Positions 3,977 to 35,291 of a DNA stretch of 64,000 bases are shown here, one piece after another. The position numbers and the translations under genes are program-made. Numbering within the stretch: the first letter of the stretch is position 1; each line of letters opens with the position of its first letter. The notes under the pieces are model-generated. The model was not told where the DNA came from. It made no database searches and saw only the letters and a list, made by a program, of their open reading frames with translations. The stretch spans positions 471 to 64,470 of the forward strand of contig CAXBFC010000001.1 of assembly GCA_963974725.1 (NCBI GenBank), written 5' to 3'. Source of the DNA: an uncultured bacterium. Its GTDB lineage: Bacteria > Planctomycetota > UBA1135 > UBA2386.

Positions 3977-6748
3977 CTAGTTCGACTGGAACAACTCGCT
4001 GGTCACGATCGAAGTGATCATGGTAGCAAGGCCATCGCCACGCATTCGTGTCTGAGCTGTAATCTCGTCGATCGCGGCACGATCTGCAAACGTCAACGGC
4101 CGGCCGAGTGCGAACGTCGCCAGCTTTTGGACCAAGGCCCGAACGAACTGATCCTGCCGATTCTTGAGCAGGAAGCGCTTCAAGCCATCGACGCCATCGA
4201 GCTTCTGCTTGTTGAACAGCACGCTGACCGAGTCGACCGGCTTGCCGCCAATCTTGGTGCGGAACCTGCCGACCGCATCGAAGTTTTCGAACGCGATCCC
4301 CCACGGATCGATCTTGGCGTGGCAGGACATGCACGCCGGATGATCTCGATGGTTCTCGATGCGCTGCTTCAACGTCATCTTGGCGATCTCCGGATCGGTC
4401 AGATCGATCTCAGGCACAGCCGGCGGCGGCGGTGGCGGCGGATCGTTGAGCAGACGCTCCAGCATCCAGATGCCGCGCTTCAGCGGATGCGAGTCGATGC
4501 CATCGGAGTTCATCGCCAGCAACCCCGCCTGCGTCAACAAGCCGCCACGTCCCTGCTCAGGCGTCAGCTCGACGCGGCGGAACTGGTTGCCCGTGACATC
4601 GGACAAGCCGTAGTGCTTGGCCAGCCGTTCATTGGCCATCGTGAAGTTGGCGTGCAAGAACTCGAGCGCGCTGTGATCTTGCTGCAGAACCTCGTGGAAG
4701 AATGCGATTGGCTCCTCAGCCATCGCCTGCTTCAGGGTCGCATCAAAGCGTGGGTAGGCTTTGCGATCGACGTGCAAGAAGTCGAGCAGTTCGAGCCCGA
4801 GCCACTGTCGAACGAAGTGCTGCGAGAACCTGCGCGCCTTGGGATCGCGCAGCATGCGTTCGAGCTGGTCGCGAAGCACGTCCGCATCCTGCAACTGCCC
4901 TGTGCTCGCCAGCGTCTGCAACTCGCGATCCGGCATGCTACACCAGACGAACATCGACAGGCGCGTCGCCAACTCAAGCCCGGACAGTCCGTCTGCCTTC
5001 GAGGCAACGACGTAGAGGAAGTTGGGCGACGCCAGCACCGTCGCCAACGTCTCGACCATCGCATCCTCGAAGCTGCCGCACTTGGGGCGCAGCTTCTCAA
5101 ACAGCTTCACCTTCTGCGCGACTTCTTGTTGGGTCGCATCACGGCGCCATGCACGCGAAAGAAACTGCGTCAGCACCTCACGTGCGTAGACGTTCTCCTC
5201 GGCGGGCTTCGAGCTGGCACGATCGCCGAAGATCTTCGTGTGCGAAGTCGGCGGCCACTGCTCGTAGACGGGAGCGCTGACCTCGACGTGGTCGATCCAC
5301 ACATCGCCGCCCGAATGCGACGTGTTGAGAATCTTGATGTATTCCGACGGGCTTGGAAGCTGGCCGAGCTCCTGGGTCTTGCGCACCATGTTGCGCGGAT
5401 AGATCTGGCTCAACGGCACTTGCCATTCGTAGAACTGCGCCGCCCCAGGTGCAGCAGCCACGACAAGTTCCTCCTTGCCGATCACGTACGAAGAGCTCGA
5501 GTCGTTGCTCGCCTGCCAGCCGAACATTAGCTGCAAGCTCGGTGCCCCATCATGCTCGCGTGACTCGCGCGAGGCACGCACACGCACGCGCAGCATGCCC
5601 CGCTCCGGCAACTGATTTCCTAGCTCGACGACCAGTGCCTTGCGCTGCGGAACAACCGCAATCTGTTCCAACTGAGCTGGGACTTCGGGCCGTTTTTCCG
5701 CTGGCTTCCAAGCAAACTTCGCGCCGTTGTAGCCCCACGACTGCCGCGCCATACGGCCACTCTTCAGGTCCTTGTAGAAGACGCCGTTCGGCCGCTTCAA
5801 AAAGCGCTCGGCCTGACGCGCCAACTCGACTTCCAACTTCTTCGAGTCGTCCTTGTGCTTCTTGCGCAGGTTGGCGAGTTGCTGGTCCTGCTTCGCCCAC
5901 TCGACTGCCGCCGCGGCTGGCATCGACACACCCCAATGCAGCATTTCTGGCTGCTCACCGGTGATCGTCGCCAGGCGCAACGCCCGACGACTGGCATCCA
6001 GGTAGGCGCGAAACTGCATGCCCGATACGTGCAGCACTTCTGAGCTGTTTTGGAAGCCGTCTTTCGAAGTCGGATCGGGGGGCAGGTCTTCGGCAAAGTC
6101 GAACGGCAGCCCGAGCAGGTCTTGCAGCGCGTAGTTGTATTCGTACCGCGTCATCCGCCGGAACGACGAATGCTTGATGGTGGCGCGACGCGTGGTCGAG
6201 GCGATCTGGATTTCCGCAGCCAACCATTCGATCACCCGGGTGCGATCCCCATCGGCAAGCTCCACTTCGTCTTCCGGCGGCATCTCGCCGTTGGTCAACA
6301 CCGCGAGCACTTCGAGCCACCAATCGACATCGTTGCCCGCGAACAGGTCGGCATTGAGCGTATCGATGCGCAGCTCGCCCTTCTGCTTGTCCGGCCCGTG
6401 GCATTCGAAGCACGCTTTCGCGAGCACCGGTTGGATCAACTTCTGGAAGGTCTTGAGGTCCGGCTCCGGGGCCGTTTCGGCGACCCGCTTCGATTCGTGC
6501 GTGTGGTAGCTCGAGCGACGCGCGCCCTCCACCTTGAGCTCGTCGAATGACTTGGGTTGCGCAGCCGGCTTCGGGTCCTGAAGGGTCTTGGAGTCTTCTG
6601 GCGCCTCGACCACCTGCGCGTAGGCGCCGTTACACATGACACACAGCAGTGCGGCGAAGCACACAATGTATCGGACGTTCTTGTGTCGGACGTTCTTGTG
6701 TCGGACGTTTCGGTGTCGGACGTTCTTGGTGTCGATCATTGGCGTCAT
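3977..6748 (-). CDS. DUF1549/DUF1553 protein with planctomycete cytochrome-c-like domain (PSD1-type)
   Basis: 923-aa ORF. CFECHGPDKQKGELRIDTL (CxxCH) N-terminal domain, second CMSCHAKIDPWG motif, signal peptide after a basic repeat region. Confidence 0.9.
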   Translation of the reverse strand: MTPMIDTKNVRHRNVRHKNVRHKNVRYIVCFAALLCVMCNGAYAQVVEAPEDSKTLQDPKPAAQPKSFDELKVEGARRSSYHTHESKRVAETAPEPDLKTFQKLIQPVLAKACFECHGPDKQKGELRIDTLNADLFAGNDVDWWLEVLAVLTNGEMPPEDEVELADGDRTRVIEWLAAEIQIASTTRRATIKHSSFRRMTRYEYNYALQDLLGLPFDFAEDLPPDPTSKDGFQNSSEVLHVSGMQFRAYLDASRRALRLATITGEQPEMLHWGVSMPAAAAVEWAKQDQQLANLRKKHKDDSKKLEVELARQAERFLKRPNGVFYKDLKSGRMARQSWGYNGAKFAWKPAEKRPEVPAQLEQIAVVPQRKALVVELGNQLPERGMLRVRVRASRESREHDGAPSLQLMFGWQASNDSSSSYVIGKEELVVAAAPGAAQFYEWQVPLSQIYPRNMVRKTQELGQLPSPSEYIKILNTSHSGGDVWIDHVEVSAPVYEQWPPTSHTKIFGDRASSKPAEENVYAREVLTQFLSRAWRRDATQQEVAQKVKLFEKLRPKCGSFEDAMVETLATVLASPNFLYVVASKADGLSGLELATRLSMFVWCSMPDRELQTLASTGQLQDADVLRDQLERMLRDPKARRFSQHFVRQWLGLELLDFLHVDRKAYPRFDATLKQAMAEEPIAFFHEVLQQDHSALEFLHANFTMANERLAKHYGLSDVTGNQFRRVELTPEQGRGGLLTQAGLLAMNSDGIDSHPLKRGIWMLERLLNDPPPPPPPAVPEIDLTDPEIAKMTLKQRIENHRDHPACMSCHAKIDPWGIAFENFDAVGRFRTKIGGKPVDSVSVLFNKQKLDGVDGLKRFLLKNRQDQFVRALVQKLATFALGRPLTFADRAAIDEITAQTRMRGDGLATMITSIVTSELFQSN
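6671..6730. repeat. 15-bp tandem repeat x4 (tcggacgttcttgtg) inside the 5' end of the DUF1549/1553 gene
   Basis: Four consecutive 15-mers read directly. On the minus strand they encode (K/R)NVRH x4 in the n-region of the signal peptide. Confidence 0.9.
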
Positions 6749-6814: not shown

Positions 6815-9001
6815 ATGCGCATGTACGCTGCTCTGCTGGTGATTTTCGCTACTGCCTGTGCTGGAGTCGAACGTTCACGGTTCGATGATCTGCAGTGGCG
6901 TGCCATCGGACCGCGCCTATGCGGCGGCCGCATCGAGGCGATCGCCGTGCATGGTGAGAGGATCTACGTCGGCGCCGGCTCCGGCAACCTCTGGTGCAGC
7001 GAGGATGACGGCCACACCTGGACACCGATTTTCGACCACGAATCGTCGTTCGCCATTGGCGCCGTGGCCGTGGCGCCGTCGGACCCCGACGTATTGTGGG
7101 TTGGCACTGGCGAAGTCCTGATGGCACGCAGTTCGTATGCCGGAACCGGGGTGTTTCGATCGAACGATGCCGGCACCACGTGGCGCAACGTCGGACTCGC
7201 CGACAGCTTCCACATTGGTCGCATCGTGGTGCATCCCGACGATGCGGATGTCGCCTGGGTCGCGGCGATCGGCCACAACTACACGCACAACGAACAGCGC
7301 GGCGTCTTCCGCACCCGCGACGGCGGTGCCAACTGGCAGCATGTGCTCGCGGTCTCGCCCCGAGCCGGCGCCATCGACGTGGTGATGCACCCTACCGATC
7401 CCGAAACGCTGTTCGCCGTGACCTGGGAACGGGATCGCAAGGCGTGGAACAACATCGAATACGGGCCAGGTAGCGGCTTGCATATGTCGACGGACGGTGG
7501 CAGCAACTGGCAACAACTGGCAGGTGGCCTGCCAACCGGTGACCTCGTCGGCCGGATAGGTCTCGGCATTGCGCGCAGCCACCCGCAGACGATGTATGCC
7601 ATCGTCGACAACCACAACCGCGACCCCGCCGGCAAACGGCTCGGCGGCATGCTGTTTCGTAGCGATGATGGCGGCAACAGCTGGCGGCAAGCGAACACCG
7701 AGCCACTGGCGACACGCATCGGCTACGACTTGTGCGAGGTCGTCGTCGCTCCCGATGATCCCGAAGAAGTGTGGATCCCCGGCCACTACCTGCTGCATTC
7801 GATCGATGGTGGCAAGACCTTCGAGCGCGTCTCGGGCGAAGTCCGCAACCTGCTGCCGAACCCCGCGCAGCAACTGCACCTCGATCACCACGAGCTGTGG
7901 CAAGACCCTGCCAACGGCGACCGCATGCTGCTCGGAACCGATGGCGGTATGTATGCATCGCGCGACCGCGGCACCAGCTGGCTGCGCCTCAACAGCATGC
8001 CGATCGCTGAGGTCTACGCGCTGACGCTCGACGACGCCGAGCCATACAACATCTTCATCGGCACGCAGGACAACGCCGCGCTCTACGGCCCCGCAACCGG
8101 CAGCATCGCGGCCGATGCACCGGAAACGTGGAAATACGTCTACCAGGACCGCTGGGGCGGCGGCGACAGCTACTTCACGTTCCCGGATCCTGGCGACGGC
8201 AACACGGTCTACTACGAACACCAGTTTGGCGACCTGCGCCGCAAGGACATGCGCACCGGCAAAGCCACTTCGATCGCACCACAAGCCGAGCGCAACGAAG
8301 CGGCGTTGCGACGCAATTGGATGACGCCGGTGCTCGCTTCGCGTCACGCCCACAACACCTTGCTGTATGGCACGCAACGGCTCTACCGATCGCCTGATCG
8401 AGGCGACTCCTGGCAAGCGATCAGCCCGGACCTGACGACGAACCCGGGATCGGAACGGCGCGGCAACGTTCCGTTCGGCACGATCACCAGCATCAGTGAA
8501 TGCCACTTCGAGCCAACCACGATCTACGTCGGCACCGACGATGGACTCGTGCAGCGCAGCCAGGACGACGGCACAACCTGGACCAATGTCACGGGCCCCC
8601 TACCGCAAAAGTGGGTGAGCCGCGTGATCACGTCGCGGCACGATCGGGCCCGGGTCTTCGTGACCATGACGGGTTACCGGGACGACGACTTCCAGCCCTA
8701 CGCCTATCGCTCGGAGGATCACGGCGCAACCTGGCGATCAATTGCTGCAGGTCTGCCACAAGAGTCGGTCAATGTGATTCGCGAAGACCCGCACAACGCC
8801 GACACGCTCTACGTCGGCACAGACCGCGGCGTGCACGCGTCGTTCGACGGCGGCAACACGTGGCACAGTTTGCGTGGCGATCTCCCGACAACGCCCGTGC
8901 ACGATCTCGCGGTGCATGCCAGCGGCGACCTGGTCCTCGGCACACACGGACGCGGCGTGTTCGTATTGCCACTCGATGCGCTACAGGCGAGAGTCCGCTA
9001 G
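6815..9001 (+). CDS. sortilin/Vps10-like BNR-repeat beta-propeller protein (glycosyl-hydrolase-like)
   Basis: 728-aa ORF. Repeated S-x-D-x-G-x-T-W motifs (SEDDGHTWTP, SNDAGTTWRN, TRDGGANWQH, STDGGSNWQQ, SDDGGNSW, SIDGGKTF, SRDRGTSW). Paralogous to 8998..11652 and 37193..40138. Confidence 0.85.
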   Translation: MRMYAALLVIFATACAGVERSRFDDLQWRAIGPRLCGGRIEAIAVHGERIYVGAGSGNLWCSEDDGHTWTPIFDHESSFAIGAVAVAPSDPDVLWVGTGEVLMARSSYAGTGVFRSNDAGTTWRNVGLADSFHIGRIVVHPDDADVAWVAAIGHNYTHNEQRGVFRTRDGGANWQHVLAVSPRAGAIDVVMHPTDPETLFAVTWERDRKAWNNIEYGPGSGLHMSTDGGSNWQQLAGGLPTGDLVGRIGLGIARSHPQTMYAIVDNHNRDPAGKRLGGMLFRSDDGGNSWRQANTEPLATRIGYDLCEVVVAPDDPEEVWIPGHYLLHSIDGGKTFERVSGEVRNLLPNPAQQLHLDHHELWQDPANGDRMLLGTDGGMYASRDRGTSWLRLNSMPIAEVYALTLDDAEPYNIFIGTQDNAALYGPATGSIAADAPETWKYVYQDRWGGGDSYFTFPDPGDGNTVYYEHQFGDLRRKDMRTGKATSIAPQAERNEAALRRNWMTPVLASRHAHNTLLYGTQRLYRSPDRGDSWQAISPDLTTNPGSERRGNVPFGTITSISECHFEPTTIYVGTDDGLVQRSQDDGTTWTNVTGPLPQKWVSRVITSRHDRARVFVTMTGYRDDDFQPYAYRSEDHGATWRSIAAGLPQESVNVIREDPHNADTLYVGTDRGVHASFDGGNTWHSLRGDLPTTPVHDLAVHASGDLVLGTHGRGVFVLPLDALQARVR

Positions 9002-11652
9002 CGCGCGACGACCTTGAGCTCGCCCACTAGTTCGACCTTCTTGCCCGCGATGCCAAGCTGGTATTTGCCCGCGGCAAGAAACTCGACGTCCGCGAGGAAG
9101 TAGGGCTTGGCACTGGTGCGACGCTCCACAACCAGATCCCACAAGAACTGGTTGAGCCCGCGCCTGCCGTTGATCGAGTGCGTAAACCGCACCACGCCCT
9201 CACCATCGGCAACGGTCAACGTCACCGCGGCAGCTTCGGCCAGGAAGAACGTGATCGGCACGCGCTCCTCGGAGCTGCGACGCGGCCGTGGCGTCAGGTC
9301 GTCGGATCGTGGGCGATAGGCAGTCGGAATCGCGAGCAGCGAGTTGCGCGCTGGACGGTTCTGCAACCACCAGTGCAAGGGCTTGAGGTCCAGGCGATAG
9401 ATGCCACGACCATGGGTTCCTGCAATCAGATCTAGTTCGCGTTCTTGGATCACCAGATCTGCAACCGCCACGCCGGGCATGCCACGTCCCAACAAGGACC
9501 AACTGCTGCCGCGGTCGATGGACACGTACACGCCGCGATACATCGCCGCATAGAGCACATGCTCGAAGCGAGGGTCTTCAACGATGGCATACGCCACTTC
9601 GTTGGGTAGGTTGCCGCGGATCGATGTCCACGTCGCACCGCGGTCCTCGGACACGAACAGGTGCGCGCCCAGGTCGTCGTAGTTGAGGCCCGTGACGGTG
9701 ACGTAGACCCGCGCGTCTTCAAATCGAGAAGCACAGATGCTGCGGATGTAGAACGGCGGCAGCCCCTGCGAACGTTCCGACCAGTCCTCCCCACCGTTGT
9801 CGCTGACCCAAAAGGCGCCGCGATCGGTGCCACAGTAGAGCAACCCAGCCCGCAGTGGCGACTCGGCCAACGCACCGGCGGCCGTGCTCGCGCGGGCCTC
9901 GGCAGCGGACTGCGAAAGGTCTGGGCTGATGACGCGCCACGAATCGCCGCGATCCGGACTGCGCAAGACGAAGTTGCCGCCGTGATAGAGAACGCGATGG
10001 TCGTGCGCCGACACGAGGTACGGCGCAATGAAGTTGTGCTGCAACTTGCCAACATGTTCGCGCGGCAAACGCGGCGCGATCGACTTCGAGCGATTGCTCG
10101 GCACATCCTTGCGGCGCAAGCCACCGTGCTGGCTCGAGAAGTAGACGGTGTTGGCATCGACGGGATCCGGCACCGTGTAGCAACCATCGCCACCGCACCA
10201 TGGATCGAGCCAAACGTATTCCCAGAGGTCCGGATCGGTGGATCCGGGGCGGCGTTCGCGCGCCGGACCGCGCACCGACGCGTTGTCCTGCACCCCGCCA
10301 TAGACGAGATACGGATCGCTGTTGTCGACGGCCACATCGTAGAACTCGCCAACCGCCAGATTGTTGTGATGCAACCACGACCGGCCGCGATCCAGACTGG
10401 TGTAGAGGCCACCATCGTTGCCGAGGATCAGCTGGTTGGGATGCGCTGGATCGATCCACATCTCGCAGTGGTCGAGGTGCAAGGTCTGGGCCGGGCTTGG
10501 CACCCGATGCGTCACCTCTCCACCGATCAATTCGAACGTGCGGCCACCATCGGTGCTGTGGGCAATGCGAACGCCGAGCGCGTAGATCTCATCATCATCC
10601 AACGGATTGAGGTAGCAGTCGGAGAAGTACCAGCCGATTCGCGAGTTGATCTGCAGGTCTTCCTGATGCGTTCGCAACCAGCTCGCGCCACCATCGAGGC
10701 TGCGATACACCTCACCGGGGTTCTGCTCACGATTGAGGTTGTCGACAAACGCGTAAACCTTGTCCGGGTTCGTCGCCGACACGGCCAGCCCGATGCGGCC
10801 CGTCTTCGGCCCATCGGGCAAGCCGCCACCGAGTTTGGTCCAGGTGCGCCCGCCATCGGCGCTGCGATGCACAGCACTCGAAGCACCGCCAACGGTGGGA
10901 TGGTTCTGCCACATGGATGCGTAGACGACTTCAGGCTGCGACGGCGCAATGACGACGTCGACGGCACCGGTGTGCTCATCGACATACAACACGTGCTGCC
11001 ACGTCTTGCCGGCGTCCGTGGTGCGGTAGACTCCTCGGTTCTTGTTGCTCGACCAGAAGTGCCCGAGCACCGCCACGATTGCGGAATTGGGGTCCGTTGG
11101 GTGCACGGCGATCTCGCCGATGTGCCACGAATCGCATAGCCCCACATTGCGCCACGACTCACCACCATCGCGAGACAAGAACACGCCGGTGCCCGGCATC
11201 GTAAAGTTGCGCGGTTTCTTCAAGCTCTCGCCCGAGCCAAGCCAAAGCACTTGCGGGTTGCACGGCGCCAACGCGATATCGCCAATCCCGATCGCCGACT
11301 GCTGCTCAAACATGCACCGCCACGACAACCCACCGTTGGTCGTCTTCCACAGATTGCCCGAGCCGAACGCGGCGTAGATCGTGCCTGGAGACGTCGGATC
11401 GCCTTGCACCGCCTCGACGCGCCCCGAGTTGAGCACGGGCCCCAACGACACCCACGTAAGCGCAAACTCCGAAGCCTGCTTGGCCGCGCGGTATTGCGCA
11501 AACGAGGCGACTAGCGGGCTATCTGGCGATTGGCCCCCTGCTGATTGAGACTCTGCTGATTGAGACTCTGGCGATTGAGACTTTGGCGATTGGGCCTGGG
11601 CCGCTGCTACGCACGACCACAACAAGAGAATGACTAGGTAACGATGCGGCAT
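8998..11652 (-). CDS. sortilin/Vps10-like BNR-repeat beta-propeller protein
   Basis: ORF 8998..11733. The internal ATG at 11652 gives the signal peptide MPHRYLVILLLWSCVAAAQA. Repeated SxDxGxTW motifs. Confidence 0.85.
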   Translation of the reverse strand: MPHRYLVILLLWSCVAAAQAQSPKSQSPESQSAESQSAGGQSPDSPLVASFAQYRAAKQASEFALTWVSLGPVLNSGRVEAVQGDPTSPGTIYAAFGSGNLWKTTNGGLSWRCMFEQQSAIGIGDIALAPCNPQVLWLGSGESLKKPRNFTMPGTGVFLSRDGGESWRNVGLCDSWHIGEIAVHPTDPNSAIVAVLGHFWSSNKNRGVYRTTDAGKTWQHVLYVDEHTGAVDVVIAPSQPEVVYASMWQNHPTVGGASSAVHRSADGGRTWTKLGGGLPDGPKTGRIGLAVSATNPDKVYAFVDNLNREQNPGEVYRSLDGGASWLRTHQEDLQINSRIGWYFSDCYLNPLDDDEIYALGVRIAHSTDGGRTFELIGGEVTHRVPSPAQTLHLDHCEMWIDPAHPNQLILGNDGGLYTSLDRGRSWLHHNNLAVGEFYDVAVDNSDPYLVYGGVQDNASVRGPARERRPGSTDPDLWEYVWLDPWCGGDGCYTVPDPVDANTVYFSSQHGGLRRKDVPSNRSKSIAPRLPREHVGKLQHNFIAPYLVSAHDHRVLYHGGNFVLRSPDRGDSWRVISPDLSQSAAEARASTAAGALAESPLRAGLLYCGTDRGAFWVSDNGGEDWSERSQGLPPFYIRSICASRFEDARVYVTVTGLNYDDLGAHLFVSEDRGATWTSIRGNLPNEVAYAIVEDPRFEHVLYAAMYRGVYVSIDRGSSWSLLGRGMPGVAVADLVIQERELDLIAGTHGRGIYRLDLKPLHWWLQNRPARNSLLAIPTAYRPRSDDLTPRPRRSSEERVPITFFLAEAAAVTLTVADGEGVVRFTHSINGRRGLNQFLWDLVVERRTSAKPYFLADVEFLAAGKYQLGIAGKKVELVGELKVVAR
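11523..11597. repeat. 15-bp tandem repeat x5 (ctggcgattgagact-like) in the 5' coding region of the sortilin-like gene
   Basis: Five consecutive 15-mers. On the minus strand they encode QSPKSQSPESQSAESQSAGGQSPDSP immediately after the predicted signal peptide. Confidence 0.9.
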
Positions 11653-32796: not shown

Positions 32797-32974
32797 GCTC
32801 TTGGTGAGATCTCACGCAATTAGTTTTGATTGATCCAACACAACGACCGATATCTGTGCTACTAATTGTCTCCGTGATGACGCGTCTACAAAACACCTAC
32901 AGCCAACCTTCGCCGAGCAATCGGTGCGCGCTGCGGTCGTGTGGACGAATCGAATCGCGATTCAATTCGAACGG

Positions 32975-33058
32975 GCACGGTCAACACGGCCAGCGTCAAT
33001 ACGGCCAGCGTCAATACGGCCAGCACGGTCAAGATGGCCAGCACGGTCAATACGGCAA
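32975..33058. repeat. 15-18 bp tandem repeat array (ggccagcgtcaatac / ggccagcacggtcaa), about 5 units
   Basis: Read directly. Lies in the gene-free region downstream of the esterase gene. Confidence 0.85.
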
Positions 33059-33132
33059 TGGGGAGCATCCCCCGCACTAGCCACCTGGAAACTCAGACCT
33101 TCAATGGTCATGGCCGCAACGGCCACTGCGAG

Positions 33133-33167
33133 GGCCCAGGAGCACATCCTGGGCCTTTTTCGATTTT
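33133..33167 (+). terminator. rho-independent terminator GGCCCAGGA-GCACA-TCCTGGGCC + TTTTTCGATTTT
   Basis: 9-bp GC-rich stem, 5-nt loop, and a T-run that is rare in this GC-rich sequence. Confidence 0.65.
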
Positions 33168-33429
33168 GGGCGACCGATCAACGGCGCACTCCGCGGCGTA
33201 CTCCGCGGCGCACCCCACAATGAACAACTTCACCGAACCAACCCGACACGACCATGCGTGCCAACGCACGACCGGCAGTCACCTCGCGTGCTTCGCACGT
33301 GCGACTGAGGTGGGTTTCCTACGTCAACCGAGCAATACCGAAGGCGCAATGCGCCATGGCTCGCTCGACTCGAATGACAGGAGCGCACCATCGACCTGAG
33401 CCAACTCGCATTCCCTATGCAATGAGTTG

Positions 33430-33459
33430 AGGCCCGGGTTGATACCCGGGCCTTTTTTG
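33430..33459 (+). terminator. rho-independent terminator AGGCCCGGG-TTGATA-CCCGGGCCT + TTTTTGTT
   Basis: 9-bp stem followed by a T-run (the stem's closing T plus five more T), located 90 nt upstream of tRNA-His. Confidence 0.7.
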
Positions 33460-33549
33460 TTGAACCCATCCCCAACACACACGCGGCAAGCAGCCGCGTG
33501 CGTGCCGGCAACCGATCCGTACACATCACAACATCGTCTTAACAAGCAT

Positions 33550-33623
33550 GGTGGGAGTAGCTCAGTGGTAGAGCGGAAGTCTGTGGAACTTCAGGCCCAG
33601 GTTCGATTCCTCGCCCCACCCCA
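33550..33623 (+). tRNA. tRNA-His (anticodon GTG)
   Basis: Hand fold: G-1 plus GTGGGAG acceptor, D arm GCTC-AGTGGTA-GAGC, anticodon arm GAAGT-CTGTGGA-ACTTC, T arm CCAGG-TTCGATT-CCTCG, encoded CCA. The acceptor stem needs one bulged A and the T stem has a C-C mismatch. Confidence 0.75.
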
Positions 33624-33701
33624 ATTCGCCACATCCCGATTCGCCACACCCATGCGAACCATCAACCCGAGAGGAGGTGATCCACCACTACATGCACATT
33701 A

Positions 33702-33775
33702 ACTGGCGTCGTTCAACAGCAGGACACCCGGCTCTGAACCGGACAATGCAGGTGCGAATCCTGCCGCCAGTACCA
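33702..33775 (+). tRNA. tRNA-Gln (anticodon CTG), non-canonical T loop TGCGAAT
   Basis: Hand fold: acceptor ACTGGCG/CGCCAGT, D arm GTTC-AACAGCA-GGAC, anticodon arm CCCGG-CTCTGAA-CCGGA, variable CAAT, T arm GCAGG-TGCGAAT-CCTGC, discriminator A, CCA. Confidence 0.8.
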
Positions 33776-33776
33776 C

Positions 33777-33851
33777 GTCCCCGTAGCTCAGTAGCAGAGC
33801 ACCTGGCTGTTAACCAGGGTGTCGTAGGTGCGAGTCCTACCGGGGACGCCA
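33777..33851 (+). tRNA. tRNA-Asn (anticodon GTT), non-canonical T loop TGCGAGT
   Basis: Hand fold: acceptor GTCCCCG/CGGGGAC, D arm GCTC-AGTAGCA-GAGC, anticodon arm CCTGG-CTGTTAA-CCAGG, T arm GTAGG-TGCGAGT-CCTAC, discriminator G, CCA. Starts 1 nt after the CCA of tRNA-Gln. Confidence 0.85.
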
Positions 33852-33887
33852 TATCTCGACGCGCAAGCCTCGTCGGGACTGCCATTC

Positions 33888-33964
33888 ATCGATGTAGCTC
33901 AGCAGACGAGAGCGCTTCCGTGCGAAGGAAGAGGTCGCAGGTGCGAATCCTGCCATCGATACCA
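33888..33964 (+). tRNA. tRNA-Arg (anticodon GCG), non-canonical T loop TGCGAAT
   Basis: Hand fold: acceptor ATCGATG/CATCGAT, D arm GCTC-AGCAGACGA-GAGC, anticodon arm CTTCC-GTGCGAA-GGAAG, T arm GCAGG-TGCGAAT-CCTGC, discriminator A, CCA. Confidence 0.8.
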
Positions 33965-33995
33965 AACGTAGCCACCCTCCAAACGTAGCCACCCT
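33962..33995. repeat. perfect 17-bp tandem duplication CCAAACGTAGCCACCCT x2 starting at the CCA end of tRNA-Arg
   Basis: 33962..33978 and 33979..33995 are identical. Confidence 0.9.
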
Positions 33996-34015
33996 GACGT
34001 CACGCCCCTCCACCC

Positions 34016-34071
34016 CACGTCACGAAGCCCACGTCACGAAGCCCCAGTCACGAAACCCACGTCACGACCCC
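34016..34071. repeat. 14-bp tandem array x4 (CACGTCACGAAGCC-like), plus a fifth ACGTCACG at 33997, upstream of the HNH gene
   Basis: Units at 34016, 34030, 34044, 34058. The array ends 50 nt upstream of the ATG at 34122. Confidence 0.85.
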
Positions 34072-34121
34072 GCGTAACAAGATCCCGCCATCCAAACGAT
34101 GCCGCCAGCCACGAGCCCACC

Positions 34122-34721
34122 ATGACCTCCTCAATACTGTCGCAGCCGACCCTGGTCCTCAACCGATCATGGATCGCGATCGACACCACTTCCGTTCTCG
34201 ATGCCCTGCGGCTGCTCTTCAAGGGCACCGCGGTTGCGGTTCGCCCCGACAACTACGAGATGCACGGCTTCGAGTCGTGGTCCGACCTCGCAGTCGAGCC
34301 CGATGAGCCGCACATCCGCACGCCGCGGCTGCGCATTCGAGTACCGGAAGTGATCGCATTGACCGGCTACGACAAGGTTCCAAAGCGCTCGGTGTCCTTT
34401 ACGCGACGTAACCTGTTCGCCCGCGATGAACGCACGTGCCAGTATTGCGGCTGCCGGCCCGGAACCTCCGAGTTGACGATCGACCACGTGCTACCCCGTT
34501 CTCGCAACGGCAAGAGCACGTGGCACAACTGCGTGCTCGCGTGCGTGCCGTGCAACCGCCGCAAGGCCGACCGCACTCCGGCCGAAGCTTGCATGCAGTT
34601 GCGCTGCGAACCGAAGGCACCCAAGTGGTTGCCGACGCTCGATGTGCCGATTGCTCGGATTCGCCAGTCGTGGCAGAAGTTCGTCAGCGACAAGTACTGG
34701 GACTCGCGGCTGCAGCCGTGA
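34122..34721 (+). CDS. HNH endonuclease family protein
   Basis: 199-aa ORF. CQYCGCRPGTSELTIDHVLPRSRNGKSTWHNCVLACVPCNRRK (Cys4 zinc + HNH motif). Confidence 0.85.
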   Translation: MTSSILSQPTLVLNRSWIAIDTTSVLDALRLLFKGTAVAVRPDNYEMHGFESWSDLAVEPDEPHIRTPRLRIRVPEVIALTGYDKVPKRSVSFTRRNLFARDERTCQYCGCRPGTSELTIDHVLPRSRNGKSTWHNCVLACVPCNRRKADRTPAEACMQLRCEPKAPKWLPTLDVPIARIRQSWQKFVSDKYWDSRLQP

Positions 34722-34757
34722 AGGCGCGCAGCCAGGATGCCTCCGGCTGCGTGCGCC

Positions 34758-35291
34758 TCAGCTCCGAGCCGACATCGCTCGGCGGTGGCGCAGGGTCGAC
34801 GGCGCCACGCCGTGCTCCGCGGAGACAGGCAAGCCGCGCACGCGGCAACTGTTTGCAACCATGGCCGCGTGATGCACGGTGTGGCTGAGCACGAACTGCA
34901 ACTCGCGGCCGAGTGAAGATTGCTGCCACGCGACCTCACCTTTGCTGGACGAGGCGGTGCGCACATGCACCGGCGCCGCCATATCGGCCGTCAACAAAGC
35001 CGGGCGCAACTCTTTGAGCAAGCCGCGGACCTTGCCGAGCGCTCGATCGCGATCGCATTCAATCTCGGGACAACGCGCGCGGTCGTCGTAGTCAAACTTC
35101 TGCATGGCGATGCCATCCGAGAGCGTGACGTAGTGGTCGATGCAGTGGCGAACGTGCTGACCAATCGTGGCGCCAGCCAATTCCGGAACGGCGGCGCAGT
35201 AATCCTCCGCAGGCAGCAGGCTCACGTGATCGGCAAAGGTCGCCAGGGAGTCGCAAACTGCGCCAACTAGATTCTCGGGTGCCGTCATCAA
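34758..35291 (-). CDS. DinB-family (DinB_2-like) metal-dependent protein
   Basis: 177-aa ORF. His-containing helices IGQHVRHCIDHY and LSHTVHHAAM. Confidence 0.65.
   Translation of the reverse strand: MMTAPENLVGAVCDSLATFADHVSLLPAEDYCAAVPELAGATIGQHVRHCIDHYVTLSDGIAMQKFDYDDRARCPEIECDRDRALGKVRGLLKELRPALLTADMAAPVHVRTASSSKGEVAWQQSSLGRELQFVLSHTVHHAAMVANSCRVRGLPVSAEHGVAPSTLRHRRAMSARS

Follow-up and report, generated by a model that had tools for sequence, protein, structure and literature searches.

Three of the four tRNAs encoded in a short cluster of planctomycete DNA carry an altered elbow, in which A18 of the D loop and G55 of the T loop replace the canonical G18 and U55 or pseudouridine 55 (Psi55). 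The cluster lies within a 64-kb stretch of DNA from an uncultured member of the Planctomycetota, which we refer to as the window; it encodes tRNA-His, tRNA-Gln, tRNA-Asn and tRNA-Arg and is followed by a gene for an HNH endonuclease. Textbooks treat both Psi55 and G18 as universal in tRNA, and the elbow is touched by many enzymes, by the ribosome, by RNase P and by T-box RNAs. We found that the covariation of A18 with G55 is real and general, holding in hundreds of unrelated tRNAs. The locus is probably an accessory His-Gln-Asn-Arg operon with a homing-type HNH gene, a relative of the long tRNA operons known as L-arrays, and it carries a compensated A18.G55 elbow; the accessory status is what we infer from layout and distribution, and any advantage of the elbow would be a further step.

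ARAGORN called exactly four tRNA genes in the window, all on the plus strand, and the same four were called by the Rfam model RF00005, with scores of 49.7-67.2 bits against a gathering score of 29 (Table 1). The two programs agree with the initial annotation, which had placed four tRNAs with these anticodons and an encoded CCA within 415 bp. The loops of tRNA-His are canonical (D loop AGTGGTA, T loop TTCGATT). The T loops of the other three read TGCGAAT in Gln and Arg and TGCGAGT in Asn, and their D loops read AACAGCA in Gln, AGTAGCA in Asn and AGCAGACGA in Arg. The combination of G18 with U55 or Psi55 is present in His and replaced by A18 with G55 in Gln, Asn and Arg. All four retain G19, C56, T54 and A58; G19 and C56 are also invariant across the gap-free seed of 33 sequences, holding both elbow classes, from which we built a mixed-class covariance model of our own (own model in Table 1). 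In the Rfam alignment, A is set against the model's G18 and G against its U55 in all three variant tRNAs, with G19:C56 kept, as had been claimed from the letters alone. Because the covariance-model alignment fixes the A18 and G55 columns, no shift of loop register restores G18 or U55.

The helices of the variant tRNAs are regular in the Rfam alignment except for one anticodon-stem mismatch in Gln, and all three have anticodon loops of 7 nt. The identity rules applied to them are those of E. coli, and the nucleotides read were G73 in Asn, A20, C35 and A73 in Arg, and G-1/C73 in His, where G-1, C73 and CCA are all encoded; CCA is encoded in the other three as well (4/4). Bacterial tRNA-Gln usually has U1:A72 and G73, whereas the tRNA-Gln of the window has A1:U72 and A73; the array tRNA-Gln of another locus, L234, has U1:A72. 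The sequence also bears out three peculiarities pointed out in the initial annotation, namely that the 17-nt T arm GCAGGTGCGAATCCTGC is identical in Gln and Arg, that A1:U72 occurs in both of them, and that Gln and Asn lie 1 nt apart. Position 32 of tRNA-Arg is an unusual G, and a related Arg-GCG in locus L164 has C there. The stems of tRNA-His are irregular: A6 is unpaired, appearing as an Rfam deletion opposite A6 that matches the bulged acceptor-stem A noted earlier, and C50.C64 is a mismatch. Read from sequence, Gln, Asn and Arg look like genuine, foldable tRNAs; they appear chargeable by their identity elements, and would presumably be expressed and charged.

We then turned to tRNAs outside the window for the proposal that the tertiary pair G18:Psi55 had been exchanged for A18:G55 while G19:C56 was kept, and the proposal was upheld by selection from both sides, by counts and by mutual information. 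When loci were selected on viral contigs by the exact G55 T arm, A18-G19 was present in 103/103 G55 tRNAs, which cover Tyr, Met, Ser, Pro, Arg, Thr, His, Lys, Gly, Glu, Val and Ala. When selection was by the A18 D arm only, G55 was present in 89/90 tRNAs (49/50 distinct sequences). We also counted the neighbours at other loci that had been picked by neither the T-arm nor the D-arm search pattern. Among these 572 distinct tRNAs, A18/G55 occurred in 79 and G18/U55 in 443, and the intermediate states were nearly absent, with A18/U55 in one and G18/G55 in none (Fisher p ~6e-94). Mutual information was calculated over 2,556 column pairs for 150 distinct tRNAs aligned to our mixed-class model. The results showed that the 17 top pairs are the cloverleaf helices and that 18:55 follows at rank 18 as the best non-helical pair, ahead of the Levitt pair 15:48 (rank 19) and of 54:58 (rank 22); none of 5,000 permutations reached the value observed for 18:55. 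The tertiary pair 19:56, which served as a positive control, was A:U in 7 tRNAs and U:A in array Arg-TCG tRNAs.

Two exceptions to the pairing were seen separately: the tRNA-Arg genes L181 97-173 and L211 28-104, from a Spirochaetales metagenome-assembled genome (MAG) and a Clostridia MAG, have the exact G55 T arm together with an apparently canonical G18-G19 D loop, AGCTGGATA.

We assessed where the variant elbow occurs. The exact G55 T arm gave at least 120 matches in the viral collection and at least 120 in the genome collection; the genome-collection matches listed comprise 26 in tRNAs and 94 chance 17-mers inside GC-rich genes, and the window's own genome is not among them. Among the 26 listed genomic tRNA matches, eight are from Verrucomicrobiota (Lacunisphaera, Prosthecobacter, Opitutaceae and other MAGs), and each of these is a densely packed array (5-21 tRNAs in an 8-kb tile) with G55 and A18 in nearly all of its tRNAs. 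The other listed matches are mostly single tRNAs, found in cyanobacterial arrays (tRNA-Tyr or Lys), Patescibacteria (Tyr, Ile), an Armatimonadaceae MAG (Arg-GCG), a Francisellaceae MAG (Ile), Bifidobacterium anseris (Tyr) and a few more MAGs. In B. anseris the A18/G55 tRNA-Tyr gene stands alone; its acceptor stem and T arm are those of the tRNA-Tyr that prevails among the viral and proviral matches. The rarity implied in the initial annotation was therefore overstated, given the number of exact T-arm matches in each collection and this stand-alone case. In the literature searched we could not find a description of an A18-G55 pair; subscription journals were outside its coverage, so a prior description is possible. 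Reviews call Psi55 universally conserved and leave the A18-G55 pair unmentioned.

In loci with at least five tRNAs, the fraction of G55 tRNAs was bimodal: it was at most 20% in 69 of 79 loci and 80-100% in nine, and one locus was a mosaic. The nine high-G55 loci are seven verrucomicrobial arrays and two viral contigs, one of 275 kb and one of 131 kb, which has G55 in 18/18 tRNAs. The tRNAs of these nine loci all pass the Rfam model at 36-68 bits. The sampled cyanobacterial arrays hold at most one or two G55 tRNAs. With G55 in 3/4 of its tRNAs, the window cluster falls in the high mode. A search for the closest relatives among about 1,400 collected tRNAs gave a best identity of 83% to any window tRNA and no direct donor, and BLAST of the three variant tRNAs against plasmids and phages returned generic tRNA matches only (72-82% identity), which are uninformative on G55.

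Several further features of the sampled loci were recorded. An 8-kb tile of a Chloroflexaceae MAG (L224) holds 34 tRNA genes in 4.6 kb, mostly canonical and three with G55. The 275-kb viral contig (L061) carries a transfer-messenger RNA (tmRNA) gene at 8943-9300 on the minus strand (126.8 bits) among its G55 tRNAs; phage-family HNH and ATPase genes are close by. Swapped A54/U58 T loops (AGCGTTA, AGCATTA) accompany G55 and A18 in Ala, Asp and Ile tRNAs of L197, L228, L233, L137 and L241. Leu-anticodon tRNAs of only 73-79 nt, without the long variable arm expected in bacterial tRNA-Leu, occur in both the G55 and the U55 class (L233 3571-3646, 3813-3887, 3907-3981 and 3987-4063; also L241 and several viral loci). 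A recurrent A18/G55 tRNA-like gene, to which ARAGORN gives an 8-nt anticodon loop ('tggt', 23 copies), is present in L252, L297 and about 20 contigs of sample 3300045988. In the viral loci selected by D arm, A34 anticodons unusual for bacteria were seen (Leu-AAG, Thr-AGT, Pro-AGG and Ser-AGA).

We next considered whether the variant belongs to the organism or to the tRNA set. A metagenome scan with the 16S target of probe EUB338-III, which we take to be Verrucomicrobia-specific, recovered about 45 operons, and their rRNA-spacer tRNAs (Ile-GAT and Ala-TGC) have G18-G19 and U55 in 86/86 cases. Array copies of the same isoacceptors within verrucomicrobial arrays have A18 and G55, often also A54 and U58, so in Verrucomicrobiota the variant marks arrays, not the organism. 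Canonical and variant tRNAs are mixed in two named Verrucomicrobiota loci (L241, L197), and a Planctomycetaceae tRNA-Pro (L174) is canonical.

The HNH gene connects the cluster to tRNA arrays elsewhere. The initial annotation had noted an HNH endonuclease gene and repeats directly after the tRNAs; Pfam and the tandem repeats detected agree with it (Table 1), and the protein matches the phage HNH endonuclease family phrog_16726 over nearly its full length (E 4e-28, residues 6-188). Searches with tblastn found homologues with 34-39% identity (E 1e-16 to 1e-28) beside tRNA arrays of Verrucomicrobiota (L233, L234), of a cyanobacterium (L223) and of viral contigs (L027, L069), and shorter partial matches (55-86 aa, E 2e-9) in L061 and L055. 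The layout of the window recurs in L233 and L234, where the array ends with a tRNA-Gln that is immediately followed, on the same strand, by the HNH gene.

This arrangement is reminiscent of the L-arrays, which are long, horizontally spread tRNA operons of supernumerary genes (Santamaria-Gomez et al. 2021, PMC8421152). They are known from scattered species in a number of phyla, Verrucomicrobia and Planctomycetes among them, with up to 43 genes, a conserved HNH homing-endonuclease gene, direct repeats in their promoters and links to rtcB; translational stress induces those of Anabaena, and in cyanobacteria 9-nt direct repeats lie upstream of the array-linked HNH gene (PMC8421152). The T or D loop of the array tRNAs is unmentioned in that paper. 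Like the window, L-arrays such as the trn operon of Anabaena sp. PCC 7120 have tRNAs on one strand, an adjacent HNH gene and a patchy distribution in relatives; direct repeats precede the HNH gene of the window too and may be comparable. Unlike the window, with its four tRNAs, they reach 43. Elsewhere, tRNA array units are defined as at least 20 genes at a density of at least 2 per kb (PMC4758250), and such units are called a putative anti-defence system (PMC12803027). Judged by sequence features, we read the window operon as a small member of the known HNH-linked accessory tRNA operons, apparently a short relative of the L-array class. Of the two explanations that the initial annotation had left side by side, an alternative tRNA set is the one favoured by the order of tRNAs and HNH gene, by the absence of the module in relatives (below) and by the all-or-none G55 sets.

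Two all-G55 verrucomicrobial arrays enclose TROVE (Ro60/Rsr-type) genes, L234 4267-6111 on the minus strand and L189 6124-7710 on the plus strand, and one array encloses an SPFH gene. No TROVE gene is among the genes neighbouring the window cluster. About 270 nt upstream of the TROVE gene of L234, where a Y-RNA-like partner might be expected, lies a tRNA-like element (6384-6455, minus strand); it scores 60 bits on our own model, and Rfam aligns only model positions 5-66.

The chromosomal surroundings were compared with those of relatives. The cluster borders a DinB_2-VTT-sortilin block, in which the neighbouring BNR/sortilin protein (1,019 aa) has named homologues from Planctomycetota at 65-72% identity. 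Four related planctomycetes keep this block, with flanking proteins 72-79% identical, and have neither tRNA nor HNH gene beside DinB_2; the gene abutting DinB_2 differs in each of the four. A phage origin of the window was considered and rejected: megablast of 33000-35000 against 50,697 phage records returned nothing, the GC content is uniform, and chromosomal genes surround the cluster.

Among contigs of the same species, the tRNA-HNH module is present in all, identical contigs coming from TARA Oceans assemblies, in keeping with a marine planctomycete. The four tRNAs are identical in every one of them, and the spacers and repeats differ by 3.5-5.3%. All 11 substitutions are confined to 33982-34046; among the indels, the longest correspond to complete repeat units of 15, 17 and 28 nt. 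The strain contig L001 has one extra 15-nt unit of the repeat at 33611-33651; the strain contig L002 lacks one 17-nt copy of the 33962-33995 repeat and has two additional 14-nt units in the 34014-34067 repeat. A sigma-70-like promoter was looked for at the tRNA/HNH region and none was found. No gene was assigned to 32800-33550, and upstream tandem repeats lie in 32971-33060 (15-18 nt period, ~5 copies) and 33182-33216 (12-nt period, 2.7 copies).

Table 1. Features of the tRNA-HNH locus in window coordinates.
Feature	Position	Strand	Remarks
Second terminator-like hairpin	33130-33158		Shares motif CC[T/C]GGGCCTTTTT with hairpin 33429-33454
Terminator-like hairpin and T run	33429-33454	+	~95 nt before first tRNA; consensus match; putative end of upstream unit
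tRNA-His(GTG)	33550-33622	+	Canonical elbow G18-G19, U55-C56; Rfam 49.7 bits, own model 51.6 bits
Tandem repeat, period 15, 2.7 copies	33611-33651	+	Overlaps tRNA-His 3' end and His-Gln spacer
tRNA-Gln(CTG)	33702-33775	+	A18 33718, G19 33719, G55 33754; Rfam 53.5 bits, own model 58.1 bits
tRNA-Asn(GTT)	33777-33851	+	A18 33793, G19 33794, G55 33830; Rfam 67.2 bits, own model 81.5 bits
tRNA-Arg(GCG)	33888-33964	+	A18 33904, G19 33905, G55 33943; Rfam 62.2 bits, own model 69.8 bits
Perfect tandem repeat, 17 nt x 2, CCAAACGTAGCCACCCT	33962-33995	+	Begins within tRNA-Arg CCA
Tandem repeat, 14 nt x 3.9, CCCACGTCACGAAG	34014-34067	+	Within 157-nt leader of HNH gene
HNH endonuclease gene, 199 aa	34122-34721	+	157 nt downstream of tRNA-Arg; Pfam HNH E 3.5e-13, HNH_5, HNH_4

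The GCG anticodon of tRNA-Arg had been singled out as rare in the initial annotation. Bacteria normally use Arg-ACG, which is read as inosine. The anticodon itself is confirmed; its link to the G55 class is only a trend, since the variant class holds 5 distinct Arg GCG against 4 ACG and the U55 tRNAs hold 2 GCG against 10 ACG, an association that is not significant (odds ratio 6.25, p 0.16). Ile-TAT genes are present in several arrays. Together with Arg-GCG, they hint at a mode of decoding independent of the host's modification enzymes.

We then examined how an A18.G55 elbow might be built. In canonical tRNA, G18 sits intercalated between residues 57 and 58, bonded to Psi55 at position 2 of the T loop. 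T-loops outside tRNA obey another rule, with the consensus UGNRA and an inserted adenosine. In the T-loops of flavin mononucleotide (FMN) riboswitches, the sequence is UGNRA in 88.7% and the inserted base is A in 99.96%, and in the env8 cobalamin riboswitch (PDB 4FRG) two hydrogen bonds connect the intercalating A with the sugar edge of the G that occupies position 2. The sequence U54-G55-C56-G57-A58, with A18 in the D loop, fits such a UGNRA T-loop with an adenosine donated by the partner loop. From this likeness we infer that A18 with G55 copies the riboswitch T-loop contact in three-dimensional geometry too. A18 would intercalate between 57 and 58 and bond to G55, a switch from the tRNA-type to the general T-loop contact, and with G19:C56 and U54-A58 unchanged the L-shape and the flat outer face would be kept.

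The variant can be placed among known systems accordingly. It shares with the canonical elbow the cloverleaf, U54-A58, G19:C56, G53:C61 and a 7-nt T loop, and differs from it in having G55 and A18, which makes Psi55 impossible. Riboswitch T-loops of the FMN and cobalamin kind likewise have G at position 2 of the T-loop and an A that inserts between positions 4 and 5, but there the contact joins two riboswitch loops rather than a D and a T loop. Mitochondrial tRNAs with degenerate D and T loops also depart from G18/G19/U55/C56, but they lose the elbow contacts, whereas the variant replaces a contact in strict pairing. Some phage tRNAs reportedly evade defences aimed at tRNA because their anticodon loop is altered (Azam et al. 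2024, as cited in PMC13462974). These too are mobile extra tRNAs that differ from the host's at a site read by a nuclease; unlike them, the variant is altered in the elbow and needs a second, compensating change, and its nuclease partner is hypothetical.

With G55, Psi55 is impossible and the U54-U55-C56 motif is gone; escape from TruB, proposed in the initial annotation, follows from chemistry, as there is no uridine left to convert. Cash, a CRISPR-associated Schlafen nuclease, cleaves within the UUC motif, immediately 5' of U55, and substitution of U54 or U55 abolishes cleavage; whether phage tRNAs are among its targets is a question that its authors do not settle (PMC13462974, 2026). The toxin CdiA-CT E479 cuts the T loop between T and Psi (PMC9086364). 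Resistance to T-loop nucleases is plausible because the published ones need U55. The advantage we favour would be insensitivity to factors that depend on U55 or Psi55, such as T-loop-cutting immune nucleases and toxins. That the conversion of whole sets in phages and mobile arrays was selected for such insensitivity is put forward tentatively, as something we think unlikely on present grounds; we rate it low because the stand-alone variants of Bifidobacterium and Patescibacteria fit neutral compensation equally well.

Several observations weigh against reading the locus as an accessory set with a selected elbow. The relatives that have no module also have none of the left-flank genes (esterase, GntR, ABC), and the break in synteny is a variable region or junction and not a clean module insertion. 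The visible DNA amounts to 64 kb, and the Gln, Asn and Arg genes of the window could be sole copies. Similarity of the HNH protein to array-linked genes is moderate, at the 34-39% given above, and HNH genes are common; four genes in 415 bp have the density of an array, with a gene number far below that of L-arrays. The rRNA-operon control came from Verrucomicrobia-type 16S, and the window's own phylum, Planctomycetota, is represented by a single canonical tRNA (L174). The loci behind the statistics were retrieved for holding at least one variant tRNA, which inflates the frequencies, and many array tRNAs are related by descent, so that the counts are not independent events. Lastly, the stand-alone A18/G55 tRNAs of Bifidobacterium, Patescibacteria and Francisellaceae mean that the elbow is not confined to accessory sets, and neutral compensated change would explain them.

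Such neutral drift is one rival. It holds that A18.G55 is isosteric with the canonical contact and equally good, that the double change happens occasionally and has no functional significance, and that its abundance in arrays reflects descent from few ancestors. Lone variants among canonical tRNAs, in the 69/79 multi-tRNA loci with at most 20% G55, are what it would lead one to expect, as are the stand-alone Tyr of B. anseris, Tyr of Patescibacteria and Ile of Francisellaceae; the same contact works in riboswitch T-loops, and the identical T arm of Gln and Arg hints at copying from gene to gene. Sets of 13-21 tRNAs with mixed amino-acid identities that are 80-100% variant fit it poorly, as two coordinated changes in each tRNA are hard to achieve without selection on the set. 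Moreover, the variant sets are accessory arrays and phage sets, while the sampled Verrucomicrobia-type rRNA-operon tRNAs are canonical, and the near-absence of intermediates implies that single changes are selected against and that the switch is costly. We regard drift as possible, although it would not be our first expectation. A spare set serving counter-defence or toxin resistance, in which the elbow was selected in phage and mobile sets for removing the U54-U55-C56 target while leaving the tRNA usable, so that translation survives the cutting of host tRNAs, is a further rival with several points in its favour: all-G55 sets sit on the 131-kb and 275-kb viral contigs and in HNH-linked arrays, Cash needs U54/U55 (PMC13462974), CdiA-CT E479 cuts at T/Psi (PMC9086364), and array units have been called a putative anti-defence system (PMC12803027). 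TROVE/Ro60 genes in two arrays and the stress induction and rtcB linkage of L-arrays (PMC8421152) point the same way. The tRNA-His of the window keeps U55, however, so this set would not be uniformly protected, no gene for a T-loop nuclease turned up near these loci, where no search aimed at one was made, and housekeeping-looking variant tRNAs occur outside mobile contexts; the idea of a resistant spare set remains a speculative one that we hold doubtful.

Two other explanations fare much worse. If most or all tRNAs of this planctomycete had A18.G55, perhaps after loss of TruB, the three variants among the four tRNAs visible in 64 kb would be unsurprising. That lineage-wide reading, which the initial annotation had offered as one option, conflicts with the canonical tRNA-His of the window and tRNA-Pro of L174, with the 86/86 canonical rRNA-operon tRNAs of a Verrucomicrobia type whose phylum nevertheless holds all-variant arrays, with the mixture of both kinds in L241 and L197 and with the absence of the module from related genomes, and we consider it very improbable. 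It is equally improbable that the genes are decaying pseudogenes, or tRNA-like RNAs with a non-translational role, for example as Ro/TROVE partners. The bulged acceptor stem and T-stem mismatch of tRNA-His, the unusual G32 of Arg and the TROVE genes and tRNA-like element of related arrays would suit that explanation, but the variant tRNAs score 53-67 bits with Rfam and 58-82 with our own model, have regular stems, 7-nt anticodon loops and the expected identity nucleotides, and stay invariant among strains whose spacers vary, and a TROVE gene was not found among the genes near the window cluster. The reading of the locus as an accessory operon with a compensated elbow is the one we retain as probable.

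The operon belongs to a known class, that of the HNH-linked accessory tRNA operons, and its elbow is a distinct variant of tRNA architecture. Hundreds of tRNAs from bacteria and phages have A18/G55, with a concentration in mobile sets, and as a strictly compensated natural replacement the pair offers a ready-made double-mutant cycle for the role of the 18:55 contact. For annotation, a T-loop UGC together with a D-loop A-G flags accessory or phage-origin tRNA sets in the verrucomicrobial loci and viral contigs sampled. The question left open in the Cash paper, whether phage tRNAs are hit by T-loop nucleases, becomes directly testable. With low confidence, we further propose an 'orthogonal elbow', meaning that phages and mobile arrays may have converted their tRNA sets in a way that keeps the L-shape and ribosome function and abolishes recognition that depends on U54-U55, as by Cash, the tRNases of contact-dependent growth inhibition (CDI) and TruB. 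If this were true, the carrier of an orthogonal elbow would gain a translation set that survives tRNA-depleting immunity, and the window operon would represent a piece of such a set that a planctomycete has domesticated.

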